The notes beneath the pieces are model-generated. The model saw nothing but the letters and a program-made list of their open reading frames with translations. It did no database searches and had not been told where the DNA came from. 64,000 nt of DNA from a virus. Its lineage: Duplodnaviria; Caudoviricetes. Both the position numbers and the translations under genes were made by a program. Each line of letters begins with the position of its first letter. The first letter of the stretch is position 1. Positions 3,262-38,746 of the stretch are shown piece by piece. Location of the stretch: the IMG/VR virus record IMGVR_UViG_3300031993_000017; one strand, written 5' to 3'.

Positions 3262-3284
3262 ATATTTGAAAGGAGGTGGGTCAT

Positions 3285-4553
3285 ATGAAATTATCAACAT
3301 GGAAATGTAGTTTGAAACATCTTACAGCGAAACAGTATGAATATCTTAGAGAAATGTGTCATCTTAGTAAGAATGTGTATAATGAATCTGTATATAACAT
3401 TCGGCAACAGTATTTCCAAGAAGGTTCATATCTTCGATACGAAGCGAATTTCAGTATAATGAAGTTTTCTGAAAATTACATCAATTTAGGTTCAAATGTT
3501 TCTCAGGCTACAATGAGATGTGCAGATCAATCTTTCAAATCATTCTTCGCTCTTTTGAAGAAAGTAAAAGACGGTGTCTATGAAAATTGGAAAGTAAAAC
3601 TTCCACATTACTTAGATAAGGATGGAGTCTATCCAGTTACGTTCATACATGCTGGTGAATCTAATTATTCTAGTGGAAAATTCAAAATCCCAATGTCTAA
3701 GTATCTTAGAGACAAGTACAATGGAATGAAATTTTATATCGATGTTCCAGAATATGTTCGTGACAAGAAAATACATACAATATCAATCGTACCAAAGTAC
3801 CATGGAAAATATTTTGAAGCAAGATTTGTATTTGAAGAAAATGATGTTACCGAATCACATATTGATTATAATTCTGCATTGAGTATTGATCTTGGAGTAA
3901 ATAATTTTTGTACCTGTGCAACTTCCACCGGAGAATCTTTTATCATTGACGGAAAAAGAATAAAGTCTATCAATCAATGGTACAACAAAGAAAATGCCAG
4001 ACTGTCAAGCATAAAAGATTTGCAAGGAATCAAAGGTTGCACAAAAAGACAATATTTATTAGCCAGAAAACGAGAACGTAGAATTGATGATTTGATTTAT
4101 AAGTCTGCAAAGTACATAGTTAATTATTGTATTGAACATCAGATTGGTAATATTGTTGTAGGTTACAATGATGGTTTCCAAGATCGAGTTAATCTCGGTA
4201 AAGTAAATAATCAAAAGTTTGCAATGCTACCATATGGAAAGTTGAAGTCAAGGATTCAATATCTTTGCACAAAATATGGAATAAACTATGTGGAACAGGA
4301 AGAATCTTATACATCTAAGGCGAGTTTCTTAGATCGTGATGAAATTCCGAAATGGAATCCATTGAACCCAAAGCAAGGGGAGTTCACAGGTAAAAGGATA
4401 TATCGTGGACTGTATCAAACAAAAGATGGCATTCTGATAAATGCAGATGTGAATGGAGCGTTAAACATACTAAGAAAAAGTAGCGTTGTGAGTTTAGAGA
4501 CTCTATACAGTAGCGGCGTTGTCCTTACGCCTACAAGAGTTAGAATCCTGTAA
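3285..4553 (+). mobile_element. tnpB: TnpB RNA-guided endonuclease (IS200/IS605 family, IS1341-like, no tnpA)
   Basis: SIDLGVNN (RuvC-I), IVVG at RuvC-II with alternative Glu in EESYTS, INADVNGALNI (RuvC-III); ATG 3285 after SD AAGGAGGTG. Confidence 0.9.
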
Positions 4554-9925: not shown

Positions 9926-12238
9926 TTAATATTTTTTAATACCAGGGAACATCATACCGCCGAGTGTGACGGAGTTTCTAGAAGGCCTTGGTTGATTAAC
10001 ACTTGCAATAGCTCCTGCAACCGATTTTGCTTTGACAGGAACATCAGGATTCTTCATTATTGCGTTCCATACACTTCCTGCGAATGAGTCGGATACGTCC
10101 TTTGACCGTCCGATTGTGTGGTCAATTTTTCCGCTAGCTGCATCTCTTTGAAGATGAATCAATTCATCTTGTAAGAATTGACAATCTAGCATATCAATAC
10201 GCTTTTCTATCAGCACAGTACGAAGTGCCATGTATCCGTCAGGAGTTCTATCTAGAGATATTTTTGGAGAATCAAATCCCTGTGCTTCAAGTAACTCACC
10301 TAAATATTCACTCTGGAACTGGTCTCGGCTTATACTCTGTATATTGAACCCTTGTTTTCGCAACCATTTGATAAATACTAATATTTTATTGTAAGGAATT
10401 TTATCGCCTCTCGGTGCTTCAAGTGATACTGAAAACAGATGTGTAAATGAAATCTGCGAGATTGTATTACCATCTAAATCTTGCATATCTTTTGCACCGG
10501 TTACAGCAACAGCCGAAATACCAGTTTTGTCTGTGTTTAATGATAAGTCTAAGTGAATATATACAGGACAGCTGTAGTCTCGCTTATCTGTATACTCTAG
10601 GTGGAAAAATTCTTCAATTGAGAGCGTATCTTTTGTTCCAATCTGAAGAATATCATTGATAAATGGATTCTTCCTAGTCCCAATACAATTATCTAATATA
10701 TCTTGTGTAATGAATGATAATGATCCAGGAACTGTGATGCCTGCAATATCACGAAGTGCTATATCAAAATCTGCAATGAAATCAGATCGCATATCAATAG
10801 GCGGGTGCATGAGCGTGTAGCCTTGTGCTTCAAGCTCATGCAAACTCTCTTCATTATCTTGATTTTCAGGTACTACAAATCCTTTCTTATATCTATCACC
10901 AACAGCAATAGTGAACGTTTCTTCATGGAACATACTTTTCGGAAGCACTTCCCATTGTGGTGCATCGGAAATATACATATGATCGCCTGCACCAGCTTCC
11001 AGCTGTTGTTTCATATACAATTCCATGAAGTCTGAATCGCTTCGTTTAGAACTCACTGCAAAAATCTTACCATGAACTTCTCCCTCAACACGGAATGTAC
11101 CCTTTACACGAGTAGCAACGGTGTTGTACAGTTCTGCCATGTGCTGCTTTGCTTTCATGACATCTTTTACACCAGCTTTGCTGAAGTTCATTTCATCGCA
11201 ATTATGAGATATTACATTACAAGTATTTCCAGCAATTACAAAATTATGTGTTTCTTCAACACCTACAATATCATATACAGGTATCGGATCGTCGTAATAA
11301 ATAACTTCAGATTTACGCAATCTAACACCAGAATCTGTAAAATAATCATCATCTGTTAAATCACGTAACATCTTATAACTACCATCTGAAAGCATAATAC
11401 GATGTTCAGGTGTACCTTCAATAACAGTTCCATCATCAAGTGTGATTCTAACTGTATCCGTGACGTACTTTGTTAATTTAACATCGTCAAACTTCCGATA
11501 TCCGCCTGAAGATGCTACAAGAACATTTGAATTGTCAGACGAATACAACTCTTCTAATGTATGAACACCATCTGATGTAACTACATTTGTACTACCTACA
11601 AGACAAAATCCGACAAACACCTGTTTTCCTAACGCATTTTGTCCAGATGATCCGTAATCAACAACAATCTTATCTCCTTCAGGAATGTAAAAGAAATCAT
11701 TTTCACTTCTACTAAACTTGCCATGTTGGTTGAACCAGTCTGTAGCTTTCAATGTATCATTGAACTCACGAAAACCTACGTCTTTTGCTTGATCCTTTGT
11801 AATATTGAAGAAAAGAACGCTAAACTTCGACACATCCTTCTTTCCGTAATACTGCTGCGGATTTCTCAAACACATAAGTTTGTAGAGCATGTATGCTGTT
11901 CCAGTGATGGCTGTAGAAGATTTTCCAATTCGAGTTGCTCCTGTAAAGAAACATTCTTCGTATTTGTTACCTGCGTGGAAAATGTTGCGAAGTTCTGTCC
12001 TCCAAAATGGATACACAGCTGCTCCGTTTCTATTAGTTTTACCTAAGTACAAATCAGATTCAATAAAAGTGTCAATATCTACTGGAATTTCTTTGTAATC
12101 AGATAACCAGATTTGCTCATAGGTCTTTGAGTATCCCTCATCGACAAGTTCCTGCAAGATACATCTCAGATAATATTTTTCTTTTTCATTACAAGAATCA
12201 TAAATACCTGCGATTCTTGCAGGCAAGGATAAATCCAT
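9926..12238 (-). CDS. terL: Terminase large subunit containing a mini-intein
   Basis: Walker A GATRIGKS; Walker B interrupted by intein (VGF|intein|CDE); nuclease HLDLS and KDVSDS. Confidence 0.9.
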   Translation of the reverse strand: MDLSLPARIAGIYDSCNEKEKYYLRCILQELVDEGYSKTYEQIWLSDYKEIPVDIDTFIESDLYLGKTNRNGAAVYPFWRTELRNIFHAGNKYEECFFTGATRIGKSSTAITGTAYMLYKLMCLRNPQQYYGKKDVSKFSVLFFNITKDQAKDVGFREFNDTLKATDWFNQHGKFSRSENDFFYIPEGDKIVVDYGSSGQNALGKQVFVGFCLVGSTNVVTSDGVHTLEELYSSDNSNVLVASSGGYRKFDDVKLTKYVTDTVRITLDDGTVIEGTPEHRIMLSDGSYKMLRDLTDDDYFTDSGVRLRKSEVIYYDDPIPVYDIVGVEETHNFVIAGNTCNVISHNCDEMNFSKAGVKDVMKAKQHMAELYNTVATRVKGTFRVEGEVHGKIFAVSSKRSDSDFMELYMKQQLEAGAGDHMYISDAPQWEVLPKSMFHEETFTIAVGDRYKKGFVVPENQDNEESLHELEAQGYTLMHPPIDMRSDFIADFDIALRDIAGITVPGSLSFITQDILDNCIGTRKNPFINDILQIGTKDTLSIEEFFHLEYTDKRDYSCPVYIHLDLSLNTDKTGISAVAVTGAKDMQDLDGNTISQISFTHLFSVSLEAPRGDKIPYNKILVFIKWLRKQGFNIQSISRDQFQSEYLGELLEAQGFDSPKISLDRTPDGYMALRTVLIEKRIDMLDCQFLQDELIHLQRDAASGKIDHTIGRSKDVSDSFAGSVWNAIMKNPDVPVKAKSVAGAIASVNQPRPSRNSVTLGGMMFPGIKKY
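11201..11605 (-). mobile_element. Class 1 mini-intein (135 aa) in TerL Walker B
   Basis: Starts CLVGST, block B GTPEH, block F VYDI, ends ISHN followed by Cys; no endonuclease domain. Confidence 0.9.
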
Positions 12239-21249: not shown

Positions 21250-22728
21250 TCAACCTGCTTTCTGAGGAATACTGCAAAGATAAGTCAATGCAGTTTCCTG
21301 TAAATACTGAGTTGATTTTAAAGCACTATTCAACTCAACTAGCTTACCTGCTAACCTCAAACAGATAATGACATGATTTGTTCCATACTTTGAAATTTTA
21401 TCTTGGTAGTAAGAAGGAATCATGGTCTTTTGAATATCTTGTAAGAAAATATACTTCACTACATTCATTACAAATCCATGAAATCCTTCAAACCACTTAG
21501 CAAAATTCACACCGGAATTATATACTCGATCAATGATTTCAGTAATCTTTGCATTATCCTTCTTTGCATAGGCACCAAGTAATGCAAAATAATCATCGTA
21601 GTTAGGAAGATTCAAAGCCTTAACAACATTTTCAGTTGTAATATCATGACTGAATGCAAGTGCTTTATCAAGACTCGTGAGACTGTCTCTCATACCACCG
21701 TTGGATAACTTTGCGATGTAGAGAATAGCATCGTCAGTATAAGTGTAATCCATACCTTCTGCAATCTCAGAATCCATTACATATTTCAATCTGTTATAGA
21801 TACCTTCCAGGCTTATCTTAGATAATTGAAATGTTTGAACTCTGGATATGATAGTAGCAGGAATCTTTTCTGGATTAGTAGTACAGAAGATAAATACGCT
21901 TCTTGCAGGTTGCTCTTCTAGTACCTTCAGGAGAACTTGCCAAGCCTGAGGAGTTAAAACATGACACTCATCGATGATGAAGCACTTATACTTAGATCCA
22001 ATCGGATATGTAGAAGCTTGTTGAACTAACTCACGCATACTGTCAACACCGTTGTGAGATGCTGCGTCAATTTCTATAGACTCTCCGATGTTATCATTTA
22101 AAACATTTGCTATGATTCTTGCAGAAGTTGTATTATGAGTCAGAATATAATCATCAGATACATAAGTATGATCTTCATGATCTATCATAATACACTGGCA
22201 GTCTTCTTCACCAATGTACTTTATATCTTCAATTCTACGATATTCATCAATATCTGGAATATCATCAGTAGCACATGAATAATTTGATAAATCTGAACGT
22301 GGTATAGATAGATTAAGCCCATCTCCAAAAAGACGAACTAAATAGTCTGTAGTGACTACCTTAATTGAACCTTCAACATAAACTACATTTAAGTGTAGAT
22401 CTGCAACTCGAATTGAACCACCATCTGCTAGAACTAATTCATAAATAGGCCTAACACCTTGCGGATATACTCCAGAAACTTTCCCAGTATGCCCCTGCCC
22501 AGTGATTACCTCAGTTCCAATCTTAACATCACGCATTTCAATGAACCCATTAGGTGTTAACACATGACTATCAAGTGGCTGTGCTTTCCCAGTGCCTGCA
22601 GGACCTGTAAGCAGAAAGTTCCGGTTAGATAATGTAGATTCGCACAGAGACTTCAACATCTTCACTACAAGTGTTTGTTCAGTCATATCTTCCCAGGTTT
22701 TTGGTCTATACTTTGTAGCTAAACTCAT
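21250..22728 (-). CDS. dnaX: Clamp-loader ATPase (DnaX gamma/tau-like) with intein
   Basis: LATKYRP, GPAGTGK|TT, EIDAAS, IIDECH, LLKVLEE, TIISR, GGMRD. Confidence 0.92.
   Translation of the reverse strand: MSLATKYRPKTWEDMTEQTLVVKMLKSLCESTLSNRNFLLTGPAGTGKAQPLDSHVLTPNGFIEMRDVKIGTEVITGQGHTGKVSGVYPQGVRPIYELVLADGGSIRVADLHLNVVYVEGSIKVVTTDYLVRLFGDGLNLSIPRSDLSNYSCATDDIPDIDEYRRIEDIKYIGEEDCQCIMIDHEDHTYVSDDYILTHNTTSARIIANVLNDNIGESIEIDAASHNGVDSMRELVQQASTYPIGSKYKCFIIDECHVLTPQAWQVLLKVLEEQPARSVFIFCTTNPEKIPATIISRVQTFQLSKISLEGIYNRLKYVMDSEIAEGMDYTYTDDAILYIAKLSNGGMRDSLTSLDKALAFSHDITTENVVKALNLPNYDDYFALLGAYAKKDNAKITEIIDRVYNSGVNFAKWFEGFHGFVMNVVKYIFLQDIQKTMIPSYYQDKISKYGTNHVIICLRLAGKLVELNSALKSTQYLQETALTYLCSIPQKAG
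22132..22584 (-). mobile_element. Ala-initiated (class 3-type) mini-intein, 151 aa, in the DnaX P-loop
   Basis: Starts AQPLD, block F CQCI, ends LTHN followed by Thr; splicing restores GTGKTT. Confidence 0.88.
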
Positions 22729-23522
22729 CAGCGAAATCCCTTTCCATATTCTTGACATTTTTTATAGTACGGACACATAGACGGTGTACACCATTTATCA
22801 CCCACTGGAAGACCTTCTGGAGCAAGATTAGACTTCACTGCATCTAAAACTGCATTGAATCTTTCAAAAGTTTTGTTCCACGATTGCTCACTTACTTTTA
22901 ACTCAAAGCATTTTAGCCCTCCATACTGACGATCTTGGTACACTACTAACACATTTGGAAGTTTTAGAAGTGCCGAATACGTCTGTATCTGGTCTACATG
23001 TTCTGGTTTAACTGTAGTTAGTGCTTGCCAAGACGATGCTTCGGAAGTCTTTATCTCCAGTAAGTAAGGCTTTCCATATACTTTAACGATTCCATCACAT
23101 GCAAATCTAACGGGCGGGTCATAGAAAGTTACTAAAGTTTCAGGGCTATCTTCAGACTTCTCTACATCAAACGGACGTCCTATGTTTGAATTGGACAAAT
23201 GCTCTGCTACATCAATCCAATCATCACCTAAAAGCTCTATCAGGTTAGATTGTAAATTCCTATGGCACGCTGTTCCAATGTCTGCAATGAATGAAAGAGT
23301 TGTGTCTGGATTACTTACTACATCTGGAACGACACCTCTTAATTTGAACCACTGAAGCCTATCACATCTCAGGCTAGAGGGTGAAAAAGTCTTCCCTCTA
23401 ACCTGAGATTTTTCTTCAGATATTTTTGCTGTCAGATGCTTCTCGTAGTTATCTAAAAATTCACAACTGATTGCTGAATTGAATCGGCTACCAGAAATAG
23501 AAGAGATTTTCTTAAATGCCAT
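22728..23522 (-). CDS. Cas4-like PD-(D/E)xK exonuclease
   Basis: SPSSLRC, GTACH, CDG...LEIKT, QIQTY, C-terminal C..C.Y...C Fe-S ligands. Confidence 0.8.
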   Translation of the reverse strand: MAFKKISSISGSRFNSAISCEFLDNYEKHLTAKISEEKSQVRGKTFSPSSLRCDRLQWFKLRGVVPDVVSNPDTTLSFIADIGTACHRNLQSNLIELLGDDWIDVAEHLSNSNIGRPFDVEKSEDSPETLVTFYDPPVRFACDGIVKVYGKPYLLEIKTSEASSWQALTTVKPEHVDQIQTYSALLKLPNVLVVYQDRQYGGLKCFELKVSEQSWNKTFERFNAVLDAVKSNLAPEGLPVGDKWCTPSMCPYYKKCQEYGKGFR

Positions 23523-24671: not shown

Positions 24672-26939
24672 TTACATTTCCTTTCTAGAATTTTTAATTG
24701 AATAAGCCATCATCCTCCCGTAGAGAGTTTCGTTCTCTATCATATCTAGAAACTCTTCCCGAAGTATACGTCTTTTAACGATGTAGTCTTCGATGTTTTG
24801 TGTATACATCTCTGACACAACACCGTTTATTCCATGTGCAGGATCTCCCTTAGGTTTGCTACCATCAGGTTCATTGTAAACAGGTAACAAGTACTCCATT
24901 TCTCTAAGATGGTACTGAATCCATTTTATTTCTTCTGGATCAGTTGTATCAACCGACTTAGGTTTTGGATACTTACAAGGAAACTCTTCTCCATACCAAC
25001 GAAGTGTAGTAGTTACATCACACTTAGATGGGAACGGCAAGAAGTTAGCAGCTTCGCACATTATACTAGAAAGAAGTCTTCCACCTTCTTCCCAAGCCTC
25101 CATTGGAACTTCGGCTAATAACTCATCGTGGACGGGAATGAGTAATCTTCCGCATATCTTCTTCCAATCGGGGCTATTTTCTAGCATTATCATAGCAAGT
25201 TTTGTTTGGTCGGCCGCACTCTATATTACTATATCTTTCAAAATAGTACAGACTATATCTTCTGAATATGTTAAAACATTCAGTTCACCATTTCAACTGG
25301 TAACTCATCTTCCAGCTTACTCCTCAACAACGAGGATAGTCGTTACACTTTAATTTCTACTTTAGTCCAAGCATGTAATGTAGAAATTCTTAGCACGGTA
25401 TCACCTGCTATCCATTTCTGGACCGTAGGCTCTCTTAGTCAGCTGCTTCGTCATTTGAAATATGTATATCGCTTTAGCTTAGATACATTGTCTTATTCTG
25501 CTGATACCGTTAGCACTGCAATTATGCAGCACACCTATGAGTAATGTAGTTAGATGAATAAGGGCAGTGCAGCGGTCTACCCTGTATCATAGAATTCAGT
25601 GTCTGACGAGATCCGTCTTGAATCTTACTACGATTGTTAGTAACTCGTATGTGCTCATTCTCGTACAATTCTTTTATTCTAGGAGCCATCTGCCCCATGT
25701 ACTTGTACTGTTTGAATTCTTTGCACAATTCATCTTTTATTCTCTGCGGAATATCCGAAGATTCTTTTAAAGTAGAAGGATCTAAAGGATCTACATCCGG
25801 ATTAACGTATCCTTTCATTGCAGAAAATTCAAACTCGGGTAACTGCATCTCAGGAATATGTCTACGCCTCCCAAGTATTGTTTCAACATATCCATACTTT
25901 CGTGCAAACGCCTGTGCAGATTTCATAAGTGCTAAGATTCCAGGAAATGCTTTCAGAACAGAATCATATACTTTCTGAGCAGATTTCAATTTCTCCTCTT
26001 TTGTCATATCGTCGCGTTTGCCATACAACTGATCTGCAATAGACGGAATAGCACGACCATAGGTTATCAAATATGGTAAAATTTAGACTATATCATTACC
26101 GTGTTGTTCAACGGTACTTTGCGCTTCCGATGGTAACTCATCTTCCACCGTACAATTAGTCGTTAGACCTTATCAAGAATATTCTCGATCTTGGCACAGG
26201 ATTTGCATCAGCATTCCCTGTTAGCAGATTGATAAAGTGATCATTTCCTATCACACCAATTAAGTTCAATCCACACCCATGAGTAATATGGTTCACAAAG
26301 TTTTCATTCTACACTACAAGAGAACAACTTGTGTAGACGGGGCATAACCTTTTTAGTTTACCCAATAGTATTGTTTTTGCTTCTCCTCGACGCTTCTTAC
26401 CGTCAGGTTGGTACTCACCTGTTTCTGGATGAAACTCCAAACATTTTTCATATGGAACATTGAATGATAAACTTGCAATTCCTGCGTAAATGTCCCTTCC
26501 GTCTTGGAAGGTCTTTATCATTCCTTTATCACCGCTTATAAAAGCAGTTAATCTTGGTTCTTGTGCCTTGAACCTGTATTATGAATGTTCGCTACACATT
26601 CTCTCCGATCACTCGGAGTATCGGACTATATCTTAACACTGAAATTCTGTTACCAAATTTGCAGTGTTCCCTACGTTTCCACTTCGCTTGAAGCGTACTC
26701 TACTCGCTTGGTTATCTCAATTGACCTAGCACTACAGCTATTTATACATTTCTGTAAATGTCAATTTCTAGCATTCGATAGTCTCTACGGTTGTAAATTA
26801 TACAACCTCGGTATCGCCTTATTGTCGGTAAGGTTTCACCGATTTATAGGGTTTTACTACAGCACACAATTCTACTGTAGTCAGAAGACAACATTACATA
26901 GGCCGGGGTCTGTATCTGTATCTTCCAATCGCTTGACAA
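24672..26939 (-). CDS. polA: Family A DNA polymerase, C-terminal (palm/fingers) subunit; exons 26939-26874, 26566-26360, 26067-25579, 25220-24672 (~436 aa)
   Basis: Splicing restores motif A SSDYS|AQEPR, motif B RRGEAKTILLG|ITYG and IQG|SAAD; motif C VHDE; TTG start 7 nt after SD GGAGGTG. Confidence 0.85.
25221..25578 (-). ncRNA. Group I intron 4 in polA (358 nt, no ORF)
   Basis: Exon ends CAGGGU pairing with IGS GCCCU; P10 GCUGCACU/AGUGCGGC; GUAACGACUA and AAGAUAUAGUCU core; terminal G. Confidence 0.9.
26068..26359 (-). ncRNA. Group I intron 3 in polA (292 nt, no ORF)
   Basis: Exon GGGU/IGS GCCC; P10 GGUUAU/AUAACC; AACGACUA and GAUAUAGUCU core; terminal G. Confidence 0.9.
26567..26873 (-). 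ncRNA. Group I intron 2 in polA (307 nt, no ORF)
   Basis: Exon ACUACAGU/IGS GCUGUAGU; P10 UUGUGU/GCACAA; AGAGACUA and AAGAUAUAGUCC core; terminal G. Confidence 0.9.
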
Positions 26940-29330
26940 CCTTAACCACCTCCACTTCATTATTTTTCAATATAACTTCATCTCCGACGGATAAAGTGTT
27001 TACCGTTTTCATGCCATTTGGTGTATAAACTTTGTCATATCTTCCAAGTGCTACTGTAATTTCAGATTCATCTTCAACACACGCTAGTACTTTATCCATA
27101 GGAGGTGTTGCTCTGAACATATGTCGAATATCTGTTGCATGTGATGGAATATTTTGCATATTCAAAAATATTTGTGGACTATATCTTCGATACCCTCAAT
27201 CATAATTGACGAGTATTGTTCGGCATTTCGAAAAGTAAATAGTTACTTTCCTACTCCTTTATTGGATAGTCTCTGCACCTTACACAATTTTCGATACAAT
27301 GCATGAATTTTACCATGTCCACTGATTGTTGCTAAAGCAAGATTATGTATATCATTGTTCATTTTATCTCCATCAATGTGATGAACAATGAAACCTTTTG
27401 GAATCTCTGTAATACCAAGTGCTTGACACATTACAACACTGTGATAAAACACGTACCCAGATCCTGCCCTTCCTGTATACCAATCAGGCTTCAGAACCAT
27501 AAGATATCCATGTCCGTCTTCAACAAATTCCCTGTAGTTTGGATGTTGTTCTCTAGTCTTACCCGTCATTGGATTCTTATCACCAAGTTTTGATAGCGTA
27601 TACAGTCTCGCTTTTCGTTTATCTTGATACTCTTTTGTAAAATTATCATCGAGTATCATTTTGTAGACATAGTATTCAATTTTCGCTTCTTTAACAATAT
27701 CTTCCTGTCTCATGTTGGTGTTTGCATACAATCCACACACCAATTGAATAAGTTCCTCATCAACAACCTTTTTAGTAGTTGATTTGTTTTTATGGTAAGC
27801 ATGTATACCGTTTTCAAACATTACACGTCTTAGTGTATCCTCTTTAAGAGTAAACTTATTGCAGGTTTCTTCAACCGTGTGACCATTTTCAATGAATGAT
27901 CTGATTGCGGATATTGTTTCTTCATTAAATTGTATCTTACGCATATCATGTACCTCCAAAGGTAGATATATGTGTGTCTTGGCTCATGGTTATGCAACTG
28001 CCCTTCCATGAGTTAACCGAATTTTATGACCCCAATATGCTTTCTTAGGGTCAGCAGATGAAAGCCTGCCCGTATTGGCCCCAATTTGTTTGAACTGTGC
28101 ATGAATTCTACTATCGGATGTAGTAGCATTTGGCATCTTGTCAACAAATGTGCTGAGAAGTACTCCAATACTACGAACTTTCAGTATTTGATTTACTACA
28201 GGAATGTTCAACTCTGCAAGTACGTCCTTGTCTGTACTCATCTTGCCGTCTCTATCTGGCGGAGTGTTCAACACAGTATAAATCAAATACTTGGTATGAA
28301 CAGGGGATTTAGGATTAAAATCTTTTCCGCTAAAAAATGGTTGCTTCACTTTAGAGGATTGAATATTTACGACATGTTCTTTTAAAACACCATCAACCAT
28401 TTCTGCCAGTCGAGCTTTTTCTGTGAGCTCTAATTCATGATATCTTGCCTGAACTACACTAGCAACATCCTTGTCAATGAATGCACCGATTCTGTGCATA
28501 TTTTGACAAATTGGAATGAGTGGAATTTCTACATTCCACACAAGATCTGCAATTCTCTCCAGATGTGCTTTCTGGCACTTAGGAGACATCTTATCAAGAT
28601 ACTTGATTTCAAAGAGATACAATTCATAGGTAATCTTAGCATCGTTTGCTGCATACAGACCTGCAACTTCAGGTTTGCAGTAAGGGAACAGTTCTGGCGA
28701 GAAGAAATCACTAAACTTCTTAGGATCACCTTTTCCCTTCAGTACATATTTGTTATAAAGTTCCTTCAATCCATTCTTCAGTTCATTTTCTTTCAAGCAT
28801 CTCCAGGCAAGAATTACATCAAAATAACACACCTTGTTCAAATCTACATGAAGGTCTTTGTAGATCATAGCTAAGTCGAAATCCGCATTAGCAAAAACTA
28901 ACTTAACATTGTTGTCTGCTAGTCGTTGAAATTCAGAAGAAACATCTTGATAACTTAACTGGTTCTTGTAAGGAACATCAAATATAGGAACAAGATGCTT
29001 CATAGGAATGTATATCTCAGATTCACCTGGATAATACAATGAAGCTCCTACGATTGTATCTTTGATCCTATCCAGTCCTGTTGTCTCGGTATCTATTCCA
29101 GCAATACCAAAATCAATCAATCGAGAAACATATTCATGAAGTTCTTCTTTAGTAGTGACTAGCCTAGCAGTAGAATCTTTGAAATATTCAACAACTTCTT
29201 TTGATATTTCGTTCAATTTATCTATTACACTGCTAGATTTCATAGATGATTTAGGCGGTTGCAGAGCAGAATTACTCTGCTCTGCAGCCTTGTTTATCTT
29301 ATCCATTTGGTCTATGCTGAATAAACCCAT
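26881..29330 (-). CDS. polA: Family A DNA polymerase, N-terminal subunit (3'-5' exonuclease plus thumb); exons 29330-28047 and 27162-26881 (~521 aa)
   Basis: ExoI DTETTG, ExoII NADFD, ExoIII YAAND; TGRLSSADP|NMQNIP joined by splicing; ends in a Hint-like tail and TGA. Confidence 0.85.
27163..28046 (-). ncRNA. Group I intron 1 in polA (884 nt) carrying an HNH endonuclease gene
   Basis: Exon UGACCCU/IGS GGGGUCA; P10 GCAUAUU/AAUAUGC; CAGAGACUA and AAGAUAUAGUCC core; terminal G. Confidence 0.92.
27243..27959 (-). CDS. Intron-encoded HNH homing endonuclease
   Basis: VHHIDGDKMNNDIHNL...H...H; lies inside intron 1. Confidence 0.88.
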   Translation of the reverse strand: MEVHDMRKIQFNEETISAIRSFIENGHTVEETCNKFTLKEDTLRRVMFENGIHAYHKNKSTTKKVVDEELIQLVCGLYANTNMRQEDIVKEAKIEYYVYKMILDDNFTKEYQDKRKARLYTLSKLGDKNPMTGKTREQHPNYREFVEDGHGYLMVLKPDWYTGRAGSGYVFYHSVVMCQALGITEIPKGFIVHHIDGDKMNNDIHNLALATISGHGKIHALYRKLCKVQRLSNKGVGK

Positions 29331-38209: not shown

Positions 38210-38746
38210 ATGGATACTAACACTGAAGAGCTGTGGAAATTTATTGATAAGTTTGATGGATTTGAAGTATCTAACAAGGGAAGAATTCGTAGATCTAGAT
38301 ACACAATTACTTATCCGAATGGTAAAATTGTAGAAGTTCCTGAGCAAGAGATACATACTACTGAATGTTATGACGGTCTATATGCGAATTTCAATCGGAA
38401 TCATATACATATGAAGAAACTCGTAGCAGACGCGTTTTTACCGAGGCCAGATGATTGGTCTACTAAGAACTACATCCTTGAGTTTATAGATGGTAACATG
38501 TACAATTGTAGTGTTGATAACTTGCGTTATGTTACATTGTCTGATCACATTAAGCAGCAGATAGATGAAGGACGGCGTAATTCTCCTAACAATTACAGAG
38601 GGGTTCAGATTGTTTGTCAGGAAACTGGGAGGGAATATGCTTCCATCAAAGAGCTGTGTGATGCTATCGGAGTATCTAGATATTTTGTTACTAGAAATTT
38701 GTATTCGGGAACACCTATTTTAGGAAATCACTATAGTGTTTTGTAA
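38210..38746 (+). CDS. NUMOD4-HNH-like protein, HNH motif degenerate
   Basis: ELWKFI...EVSNKGRIR; LVADAFL; EFIDGN..N..VDNL (first His replaced); C-terminal NUMOD1-like Y.SIKE. Confidence 0.75.
   Translation: MDTNTEELWKFIDKFDGFEVSNKGRIRRSRYTITYPNGKIVEVPEQEIHTTECYDGLYANFNRNHIHMKKLVADAFLPRPDDWSTKNYILEFIDGNMYNCSVDNLRYVTLSDHIKQQIDEGRRNSPNNYRGVQIVCQETGREYASIKELCDAIGVSRYFVTRNLYSGTPILGNHYSVL

Follow-up and report, generated by a model that had tools for sequence, protein, structure and literature searches.

Four predicted group I introns and a probable two-cistron split in polA of a large uncultured phage

The family A DNA polymerase (PolA) gene described here lies on the minus strand (29330-24672, 4659 nt) of a 64-kb stretch of phage DNA, IMG/VR record IMGVR_UViG_3300031993_000017, hereafter referred to as the window. 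Taken as a whole, the organization of this gene is best explained by four phage-type group I introns of the IA2 type combined with a separate split into two cistrons, in the polA of a large uncultured phage, an explanation to which we assign a probability of about 0.9. Six-frame translation of the region reveals five pieces of polymerase and one HNH open reading frame (ORF), and the four introns together account for 1841 nt of the 4659-nt gene. The features are listed below in the direction of transcription, a slash within a protein sequence marking an insertion point.

28047-29330, minus strand: PolA exon 1, 428 codons, 3'-5' exonuclease and N-terminal part of the polymerase domain, ending in GRLSSADP.
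27163-28046, minus strand: predicted intron 1, group I (IA2-like), 884 nt, between Pro and Asn of DP/NMQNIP, Escherichia coli Pol I site 674.
27243-27944, minus strand: predicted HNH homing-endonuclease ORF in intron 1, 233 aa, ATG at 27944, Shine-Dalgarno (SD) sequence GGAGG at 27957-27953.
26881-27162, minus strand: exon 2, end of cistron A, NMQNIPSHATDIRHMFRATP followed by a 73-aa beta-domain tail, stop codon TGA at 26883-26881.
26904-27102, minus strand: gene-splitting insert, 199 nt, boundaries ambiguous by 6 nt (repeated Thr-Pro).
26874-26939, minus strand: exon 2b, putative start of cistron B, from TTG at 26939 to TPAYVMLSSDYS (motif A).
26567-26873, minus strand: predicted intron 2, group I, 307 nt, ORF-less, in motif A (DYS/AQE).
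26360-26566, minus strand: exon 3, 69 codons, AQEPRLTAF...KTILLG, assigned by Pfam DNA_pol_A and alignment.
26068-26359, minus strand: predicted intron 3, group I (IA2-like), 292 nt, ORF-less, in motif B (LLG/ITYG).
25579-26067, minus strand: exon 4, 163 codons, ITYGR...NSMIQG, assigned by Pfam DNA_pol_A and alignment.
25221-25578, minus strand: predicted intron 4, group I (IA2-like), 358 nt, ORF-less, at IQG/SAAD.
24672-25220, minus strand: exon 5, 182 codons plus stop, SAADQTK...VHDELLAEVP (motif C) and a C-terminal extension, assigned by Pfam DNA_pol_A and alignment.

Removal of the four introns restores a continuous frame at each junction, as the original prediction had claimed, and the minus-strand translation of the joined exons reads through SSADP/NMQNIP, SSDYS/AQEPR, KTILLG/ITYGR and NSMIQG/SAADQ. 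The spliced product aligns without gaps at the four junctions with the uninterrupted polymerases of Clostridium phage vB_CtyS-FA88 and Bacillus phage Flasso, and is also collinear with natural intron-less relatives. The exons are intact and conserved, and contain neither frameshifts nor stops. Exon 1 matches Pfam DNA_pol_A_exo1 and DNA_pol_A and is 52-94% identical to many metagenomic phage PolA proteins; among cultured phages, the closest polymerases are those of Clostridium and Bacillus phages, and the protein is only about 33% identical to that of any cultured phage.

The four intervening sequences share a common anatomy, and the U-G pair, the P10 helix, the P7 core strands and the terminal G that had first drawn attention to them are present in each at the coordinates originally proposed. 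Every intron follows an exon-terminal U and ends in G, with an in-frame stop located within 12-20 codons of the 5' splice site. In each intron the P10 guide is immediately 5' to the P1 guide and pairs with the first 6-8 bases of the 3' exon. The respective P1 and P10 pairings are GACCCU/GGGGUC and AAUAUGC/GCAUAUU in intron 1, CUACAGU/GCUGUAG and GCACAA/UUGUGU in intron 2, GGGU/GCCC and AUAACCU/AGGUUAU in intron 3, and AGGGU/GCCCU and AGUGCGGC/GCUGCACU in intron 4. P7 is formed by GACUA/GAUAUAGUC in all four introns (UAGUC 3' strand). The whole 64 kb contains exactly four copies of the 3' strand motif GATATAGTC, all of them on the minus strand, and each precedes one of the four 3' splice sites by 23-66 nt; 0.52 copies are expected by chance, and none of 100 shuffled sequences reached four. 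All four introns also have P7.1/P7.2 hairpins between the 5' strand of P7 and the 3' strand of P3, a trait of subgroup IA2, an assignment made from hairpin position (Rfam insert regions and alignment helices) and not from a subgroup classifier. Sequence analysis thus confirms the prediction of four group I, IA2-like introns at conserved polymerase motifs. Each would remove itself from the pre-mRNA by two-step, guanosine-initiated transesterification, in which P1 would present the exon-terminal U in a U-G wobble, P10 would align the 3' exon and the terminal G would dock in P7; existing knowledge of how group I introns work is left unchanged.

The same layout could be read as a polymerase encoded in pieces throughout, with the intervening sequences acting as spacers and each exon giving a polypeptide of its own that assembles with the others. 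Split polymerases are already known in phages, and the 199-nt insert does appear to act in this manner. However, neither a start codon nor an SD is present at the 5' ends of exons 2, 3, 4 and 5, all of which start partway through a conserved motif, and the supposed spacers display full group I anatomy together with the covariation presented below, so that we find this possibility hardly credible.

The Rfam group I model (RF00028) matches all four regions but places only intron 2 above its gathering score of 50 (50.2 bits; E = 7e-11 in a 5-kb search and 9e-10 in a separate search). In the same 5-kb search, intron 3 scored 37.2 bits (E = 5.5e-7), intron 4 scored 30.4 bits (E = 5.8e-5), and intron 1 scored 16.5 bits over its 3' core (E = 0.84, or 0.17 in a 1-kb search). 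The low score of intron 1 arises because the HNH gene in the P6 loop parts the two halves of the core, which the model cannot join: Rfam put the 5' half on ORF sequence, and about 700 nt separate the 3' core from the true 5' core upstream of it. An E-value scan of the whole 64-kb window with Rfam revealed no further group I match. The P1 helices placed by Rfam in introns 1, 2 and 3 were rejected, as they yield no in-frame product and no U-G/P10 geometry; the true P1 is situated upstream of the Rfam match, by 64 nt in intron 3 and by about 590 nt in intron 1.

Comparison with relatives provides further evidence. No match was obtained by megablast of the region against cultured phages, nor by a single-protein query over viral contigs. 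A protein search recovered hundreds of related metagenomic polymerases, whose called lengths cluster at the values expected for ORFs that run into the interruptions (about 446 aa for intron 1, about 520 for the split insert, about 533-634 for intron 3 and about 704 for intron 4), and a scan of IMG/VR with an alignment query yielded 79 related loci, on contigs mostly of 120-250 kb. The original prediction had named comparison with intron-less relatives as a check: in a tblastn map, 15 of the 79 loci carry uninterrupted genes, collinear with the spliced product, and the others carry inserts at recurring points. The six nearest relatives (P0001-P0006, 66-94% identical) were compared as proteins; P0003 is contiguous over the sites of introns 1 and 2, P0005 over those of intron 1, the insert and intron 2, and P0006 over those of intron 1, the insert, intron 2 and intron 3. 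Homologous introns occupy the same four codon junctions in other loci, namely that of intron 1 in L017, L058, L071, L054 and L055, that of intron 2 in about 17 loci, that of intron 3 in about 13 and that of intron 4 in about 10, these per-site counts being approximate since the regular-expression census left many cells as 'NA'. A match to intron 3 in L005 was a false hit and was discarded. The presence/absence polymorphism of these introns is site-exact.

The homologues also covary. Among those of intron 1 the guides track the exons (P1 GAGCCU/GGGCUC, P10 AAUGUUC/GAACAUU), among those of intron 2 P1 covaries with the exon (ACUUCAGU/GCUGAAG), and P10 alters together with the 3' exon in relatives. 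Alignment of intron 1 with three homologues locates P1, the 5' strand of P3, the P4/P5 hairpin and the 5' strand of P6 within the first 87 nt. The UUCGG strand of P3 pairs with a CCGAA about 780 nt downstream, and the corresponding UCAAG/CUUGA of L017 and L058 represents three compensatory changes; P1, P3, P6 and P7.2 of intron 1 all covary among homologues. In the intron 2 family (15 sequences), 77 pairs are 96.5% canonical, against 31-38% for shifted partners, and 55 of them show double compensatory changes. In the intron 4 family (five sequences), 80 pairs including P7 are 94.5% canonical, a value reached by none of 500 shuffles and to be compared with 32-41% in slid controls, and 38 pairs are compensatory. 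Finally, the intron 3 family (four sequences) shows compensatory changes in 27 of 60 predicted pairs. The predicted catalytic core, from P3 to P8, is backed by this covariation in the families of introns 2, 3 and 4 and in parts of intron 1.

Several points weigh against our explanation. The Rfam gathering score is reached by intron 2 alone, P1 of intron 3 is only 4 bp long, and the boundaries of intron 4 may slide by 1-2 nt along an AG repeat, which would leave the mRNA unchanged. The alignment of intron 2 was made on ORF-excised sequences and its structure was derived by RNAalifold from that same alignment, and the alignments of introns 3 and 4 comprise only 4-5 sequences. Moreover, we infer splicing itself from sequence, and likewise the two-subunit polymerase from the conserved translation signals described below. 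The scores of introns 1, 3 and 4, the short P1 of intron 3 and the abundance of selfish elements in the window would also suit one or more ORF-less introns devoid of ribozyme activity, the polymerase being a decaying pseudogene in a defective or mis-assembled genome. Nevertheless, all exons are free of lesions, the core helices are all kept, with compensatory changes across relatives, and the same architecture is found in the independent contigs L071, P0001 and P0002, which makes such decay very improbable.

Intron 1 would constitute a complete mobile unit, combining the classical polA homing site with an HNH gene in the P6 loop. Its predicted position is the one occupied by the introns of SPO1, SP82, Bastille and Pf-WMP3, at residue 674 of E. 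coli Pol I, between Pro and Asn (PMC3428280). The polA IA2 introns of these phages (encoding the HNH nicking endonucleases I-HmuI, I-HmuII, I-BasI and I-PfoP3I) and that of phiL7 share the same junction, which reads DP/NLQNIP there, and the ORF of Pf-WMP3 is likewise in P6. The original observation that only intron 1 encodes an HNH protein (Pfam HNH_3, E = 6e-11; phrog_7545, E = 1e-28) still stands, and a search for GIY-YIG or HNH remnants in introns 2-4 found none. The ORF fills the P6 loop, its last 12 codons or so overlapping P6'-P7-P7.1, and the C-terminus that it encodes over the ribozyme core (...CKVQRLS) is conserved in all intron 1 homologues. Residues 72-227 are 46-50% identical to polymerase-gene HNH proteins of Leptolyngbya, N4-like Escherichia, Acinetobacter and Xanthomonas phages; Phormidium phage records match as well, and one of the Escherichia matches is annotated as 'located in intron of DNA polymerase'. 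The N4-like phage PhAPEC7 carries an intron at the same site, after ...GRLSASEP, with P1 AGCCU/GGGCU. In contrast to the endonucleases of the SPO1, SP82, Bastille, Pf-WMP3 and phiL7 introns, the HNH protein of the window, which is known here from its sequence, has an additional N-terminal region of about 70 aa, and it matched no solved structure by sequence. Motif, site (674/676) and similarity all place this putative endonuclease in the polA-intron I-PfoP3I/phiL7 group.

Introns 2, 3 and 4 fall, by our own numbering, after residues 707 (motif A), 763 (motif B) and 850 (QG/TAAD) of E. coli Pol I, and these positions are absent among the sites 674, 676 and 881 listed in PMC3428280. In relatives, ORF-bearing homologues of the three introns encode GIY-YIG proteins, some with NUMOD3, in the P6 loop, and the GIY-YIG lineages of the three sites are mutually 25-40% identical. 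The intron 3 homologue at L056:9824-10332 contains a GIY-YIG ORF that is stopped after about 20 codons and looks like an intermediate of endonuclease loss. Because same-site homologues hold a GIY-YIG gene in the same loop and because of this decayed copy, the most plausible view of introns 2-4 is that they stand late in the homing cycle and no longer have an endonuclease, i.e., that they are compact derivatives from which the gene was lost and in which the ribozyme would be kept because the polymerase depends on it. Co-conversion or free-standing HNH genes had been invoked to account for the spread of the ORF-less introns; with GIY-YIG-bearing homologues at the same three sites, no such special route is needed, and mobilization in trans by a free-standing HNH protein is a possibility. 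The GIY-YIG-bearing homologues resemble the IA2 introns of T4 td, nrdB and sunY, which have GIY-YIG genes of the I-TevI type, in carrying GIY-YIG (and NUMOD3) in the P6 loop and in having P7.1/P7.2; compared with the T4 introns, introns 2-4 of the window appear to have lost the ORF, and the host gene and sites differ. Introns 3 and 4 have three short blocks in common, including an exact 17-mer in P7.2 (26131-26147 and 25298-25314) that the original prediction had correctly pointed out, and these blocks fit a shared IA2 ancestry.

The 5' half of intron 4 (window 25388-25547, minus strand, intron positions 32-191) is 70-75% identical to unannotated DNA of Bacillus phage G, Enterococcus phages EF1/EF5, Lactobacillus phage SA-C12 and phages of Clostridium, Staphylococcus, Mammaliicoccus and Enterocloster. 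These phage stretches are probably unannotated group I introns.

The fifth interruption is of a different nature. The 199-nt insert between FRATP and AYVMLSSDYS has no Rfam match and, judging from its sequence, is not an intron. DIRHMF and SSDYS, which are 45 nt apart in uninterrupted relatives, are separated by 244 nt here. The insert shifts the frame by 1 and holds the tail domain, an SD and the start of cistron B; it prolongs the upstream frame into the 73-aa tail, the TGA of which abuts P1 of intron 2, and exon 2b overlaps this end of cistron A in a different frame. Cistron B would begin at the TTG, preceded by an SD (GGAGG, 26953-26949), and the original remark that intron 2 begins only 66 nt into the second cistron is consistent with these signals. 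Most of the split relatives examined, with L017 and L041 as exceptions, have a strong SD and a start codon 45-51 nt upstream of SSDYS, and it is because of this conservation that we favor two cistrons: cistron A (exons 1 and 2) would encode 521 aa and cistron B (exons 2b to 5) 436 aa, so that the spliced message would yield a two-piece polymerase, the halves of which are probably joined non-covalently. Reassignment of the cistron A stop codon was considered but rejected in view of a TAG situated two codons past the TGA.

A single polypeptide would instead be produced if the interruption were bridged by a programmed -1 ribosomal frameshift or by removal of the insert at the RNA level. The frame offset is indeed -1 and the two ORFs overlap by about 57 nt; in addition, the inserts of relatives are all 3n+1 in length (199, 202 and 208 nt, besides longer split forms), and the domain is in frame, as an 84- to 105-aa form, in L058, L061, L048, L059, L060 and P0003. 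However, reading of the overlap disclosed no X XXY YYZ slippery site, Rfam finds nothing in the insert, and the conserved SD and start codon argue for separate initiation. Furthermore, the halves lie hundreds of bases apart in eight relatives (L054, L041, L030, L072, L081, L043, L046 and L065), some of which have whole genes in between. Frameshifting is thus unlikely, and translation from two cistrons is preferred. The genes found between the halves encode an HNH protein (L072:8550-9398), a GIY-YIG protein (L081:8462-9220), DUF7487 proteins of about 600 aa (L043:8695-10500, L046:8548-10368 and L065:9805-11589), those of L043 and L046 with a sub-threshold Mom-family match, and a protein with a dATP/dGTP diphosphohydrolase N-terminal domain (L030:5085-5567). 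Such arrangements suggest that the split site acts as an insertion slot.

The insert, in its 199- to 208-nt form, is located at the same codon in L007, L009, L014, L032, L066, L071 and L073, the polymerases of which are as little as 35% identical (L073). Where the insert is short, the motif A codons (AYVMLSS), read out of frame, give the final strand of the tail (such as GLCNVVF or TRVRFDVI), and in the 199-nt version the codons for this strand overlap those of the motif A strand in another frame; the longer forms have a separately encoded strand of like pattern there (TIQLEV, TLVLV, FVYVTL). An in-frame relative of the tail was modelled as an all-beta domain (pLDDT 87), and the structural matches of this model include inteins (Z 5.2-6.6, root-mean-square deviation of about 2.2 Å over about 61 residues) as well as unrelated beta-barrels (Z 6.8). 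The tail matches Pfam Hint_2 below threshold (E = 0.001), and Foldseek against the PDB gave no match at E <= 0.001 for the domain. The last strand of the modelled domain corresponds to the first 10 or so residues of cistron B, which suggests that the two subunits may dock by strand complementation. A split intein was rejected for the 199-nt insert: neither a terminal Asn nor a His-Asn is conserved, the Cys/Ser is not invariant and sits 8 residues in from the junction, and the uninterrupted sequence is restored by excision at Thr-Pro, not at intein residues.

Introns in polA were first described singly. The original prediction considered four to be an unusually heavy load, which is accurate with respect to cultured phages, in which the pol genes of Bastillevirinae hold up to three introns (PMC11878797), but not within the clade of the window, where L071 and L064 are comparable. 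In L071, the same four introns (906, 1147, 1022 and 358 nt) are accompanied by the 199-nt insert and by an intein at LN/S, the end of which is 15 nt upstream of intron 4; three introns, two inteins and the insert occur together in L064, and L017 and L054 have three introns each. Since L071 holds the same four introns and an intein besides, the load is typical of the most invaded genes of the clade and not unique to the window, which, from these comparisons, appears to sit at the top of a continuum and not as an outlier.

In-frame, stop-free inserts with intein termini (GAR/C...HN/TGR, LN/C...GN/S) were also observed at two to three further polA sites. Such intein-like inserts lie at query residue ~418 in L013, L057, L066 and L041, at ~424-426 in L039, L064, L044 and L065, and at ~687 in L023, L024, L029, L035, L036, L043, L048, L058, L061, L072, L017, L054, L064, L066 and L071. 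A stretch of 15 nt (S-x-I-Q-G) separates the end of the intein from intron 4 in L017, L066 and L071.

That uncultured phages can be laden with introns is known from the literature. In crAss-like Zeta phages the major capsid protein gene is in five fragments, with up to 14 introns per genome (PMC7886860), and Jug phages carry about 18.5 introns per genome and polymerase genes split by endonuclease genes (PMC12880540). The phages considered here are similar to both in being metagenomic phages of 120-250 kb with core genes fragmented by introns, inteins and endonuclease genes, but apparently belong to another lineage, with GGAGG SDs, PolA as the target and sites mapped to the codon. The Bastillevirinae pol genes (PMC11878797) and the three-intron orf142 of Twort are likewise alike in having several IA-type introns in one essential gene, an optional endonuclease ORF and only partial covariance-model matches where an ORF splits the core; compared with the former, the window adds a fourth intron and a gene-splitting insert. 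Genes in pieces can also arise when a free-standing endonuclease gene inserts. In Aeromonas phage Aeh1 nrdA/mobE and in the 'fractured genes' with split inteins (PMC2677866), which are of this kind, as in the window, an essential replication gene is split into two cistrons, and the longer inserts of our relatives hold free-standing HNH or GIY-YIG genes in similar fashion; the 199-nt insert differs from fractured genes in lacking conserved intein splicing residues and a C-terminal His-Asn.

The window as a whole is a phage replication and structural region, with genes for a clamp loader, beta clamp, PolA, DnaB, UvsX, SbcC, portal and TerL. On the strand opposite to the surrounding phage genes lie a TnpB/IS605 OrfB-type gene (3276-4553, plus strand) and a free-standing NUMOD4+HNH endonuclease gene (38210-38746, plus strand). 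A 770-aa ORF (9926-12238, minus strand) belongs to the large terminase subunit family phrog_17415, and its residues 223-300 give a sub-threshold Intein_splicing match (26.3 bits, against 35.8). The DnaX-like clamp-loader ORF (21250-22758, minus strand) has about 150 extra residues after its Walker A motif GPAGTGK, ahead of the remainder of the AAA+ domain (AQPLDSHVLTPNGF...ILTHN/TTS); this insert resembles a mini-intein with Ala at position 1, and no Pfam match was found for it.

Across the related loci, polA presents at least seven recurrent insertion points in about 270 codons, four of them for introns, two to three for inteins and one for the gene-splitting insert; up to six elements occur at once in one polA, and the intein and intron 4 may be separated by a micro-exon of only 15 nt. 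A more inclusive scenario, which we advance tentatively and consider a little short of an even chance, is that polA serves as a multi-site homing arena, of which the window would represent a late stage after the loss of three GIY-YIG genes, while the split module would join the polymerase halves by beta-strand complementation of a small, possibly Hint-derived domain, its junction being a landing pad for free-standing endonuclease and cargo genes.

Gene callers report this five-times interrupted essential gene as six fragments, for which a codon-exact, comparatively supported annotation is now given. Three well-supported polA intron sites, in motif A, in motif B and at QG/SAAD, join the classical site 674. 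Finally, the 79 loci form a natural series that comprises empty sites, introns with an endonuclease gene, a decayed copy of such a gene and introns without an ORF, and that could be used to study the homing cycle, the competition between neighboring introns and inteins, and the tolerance of an essential polymerase to being split.

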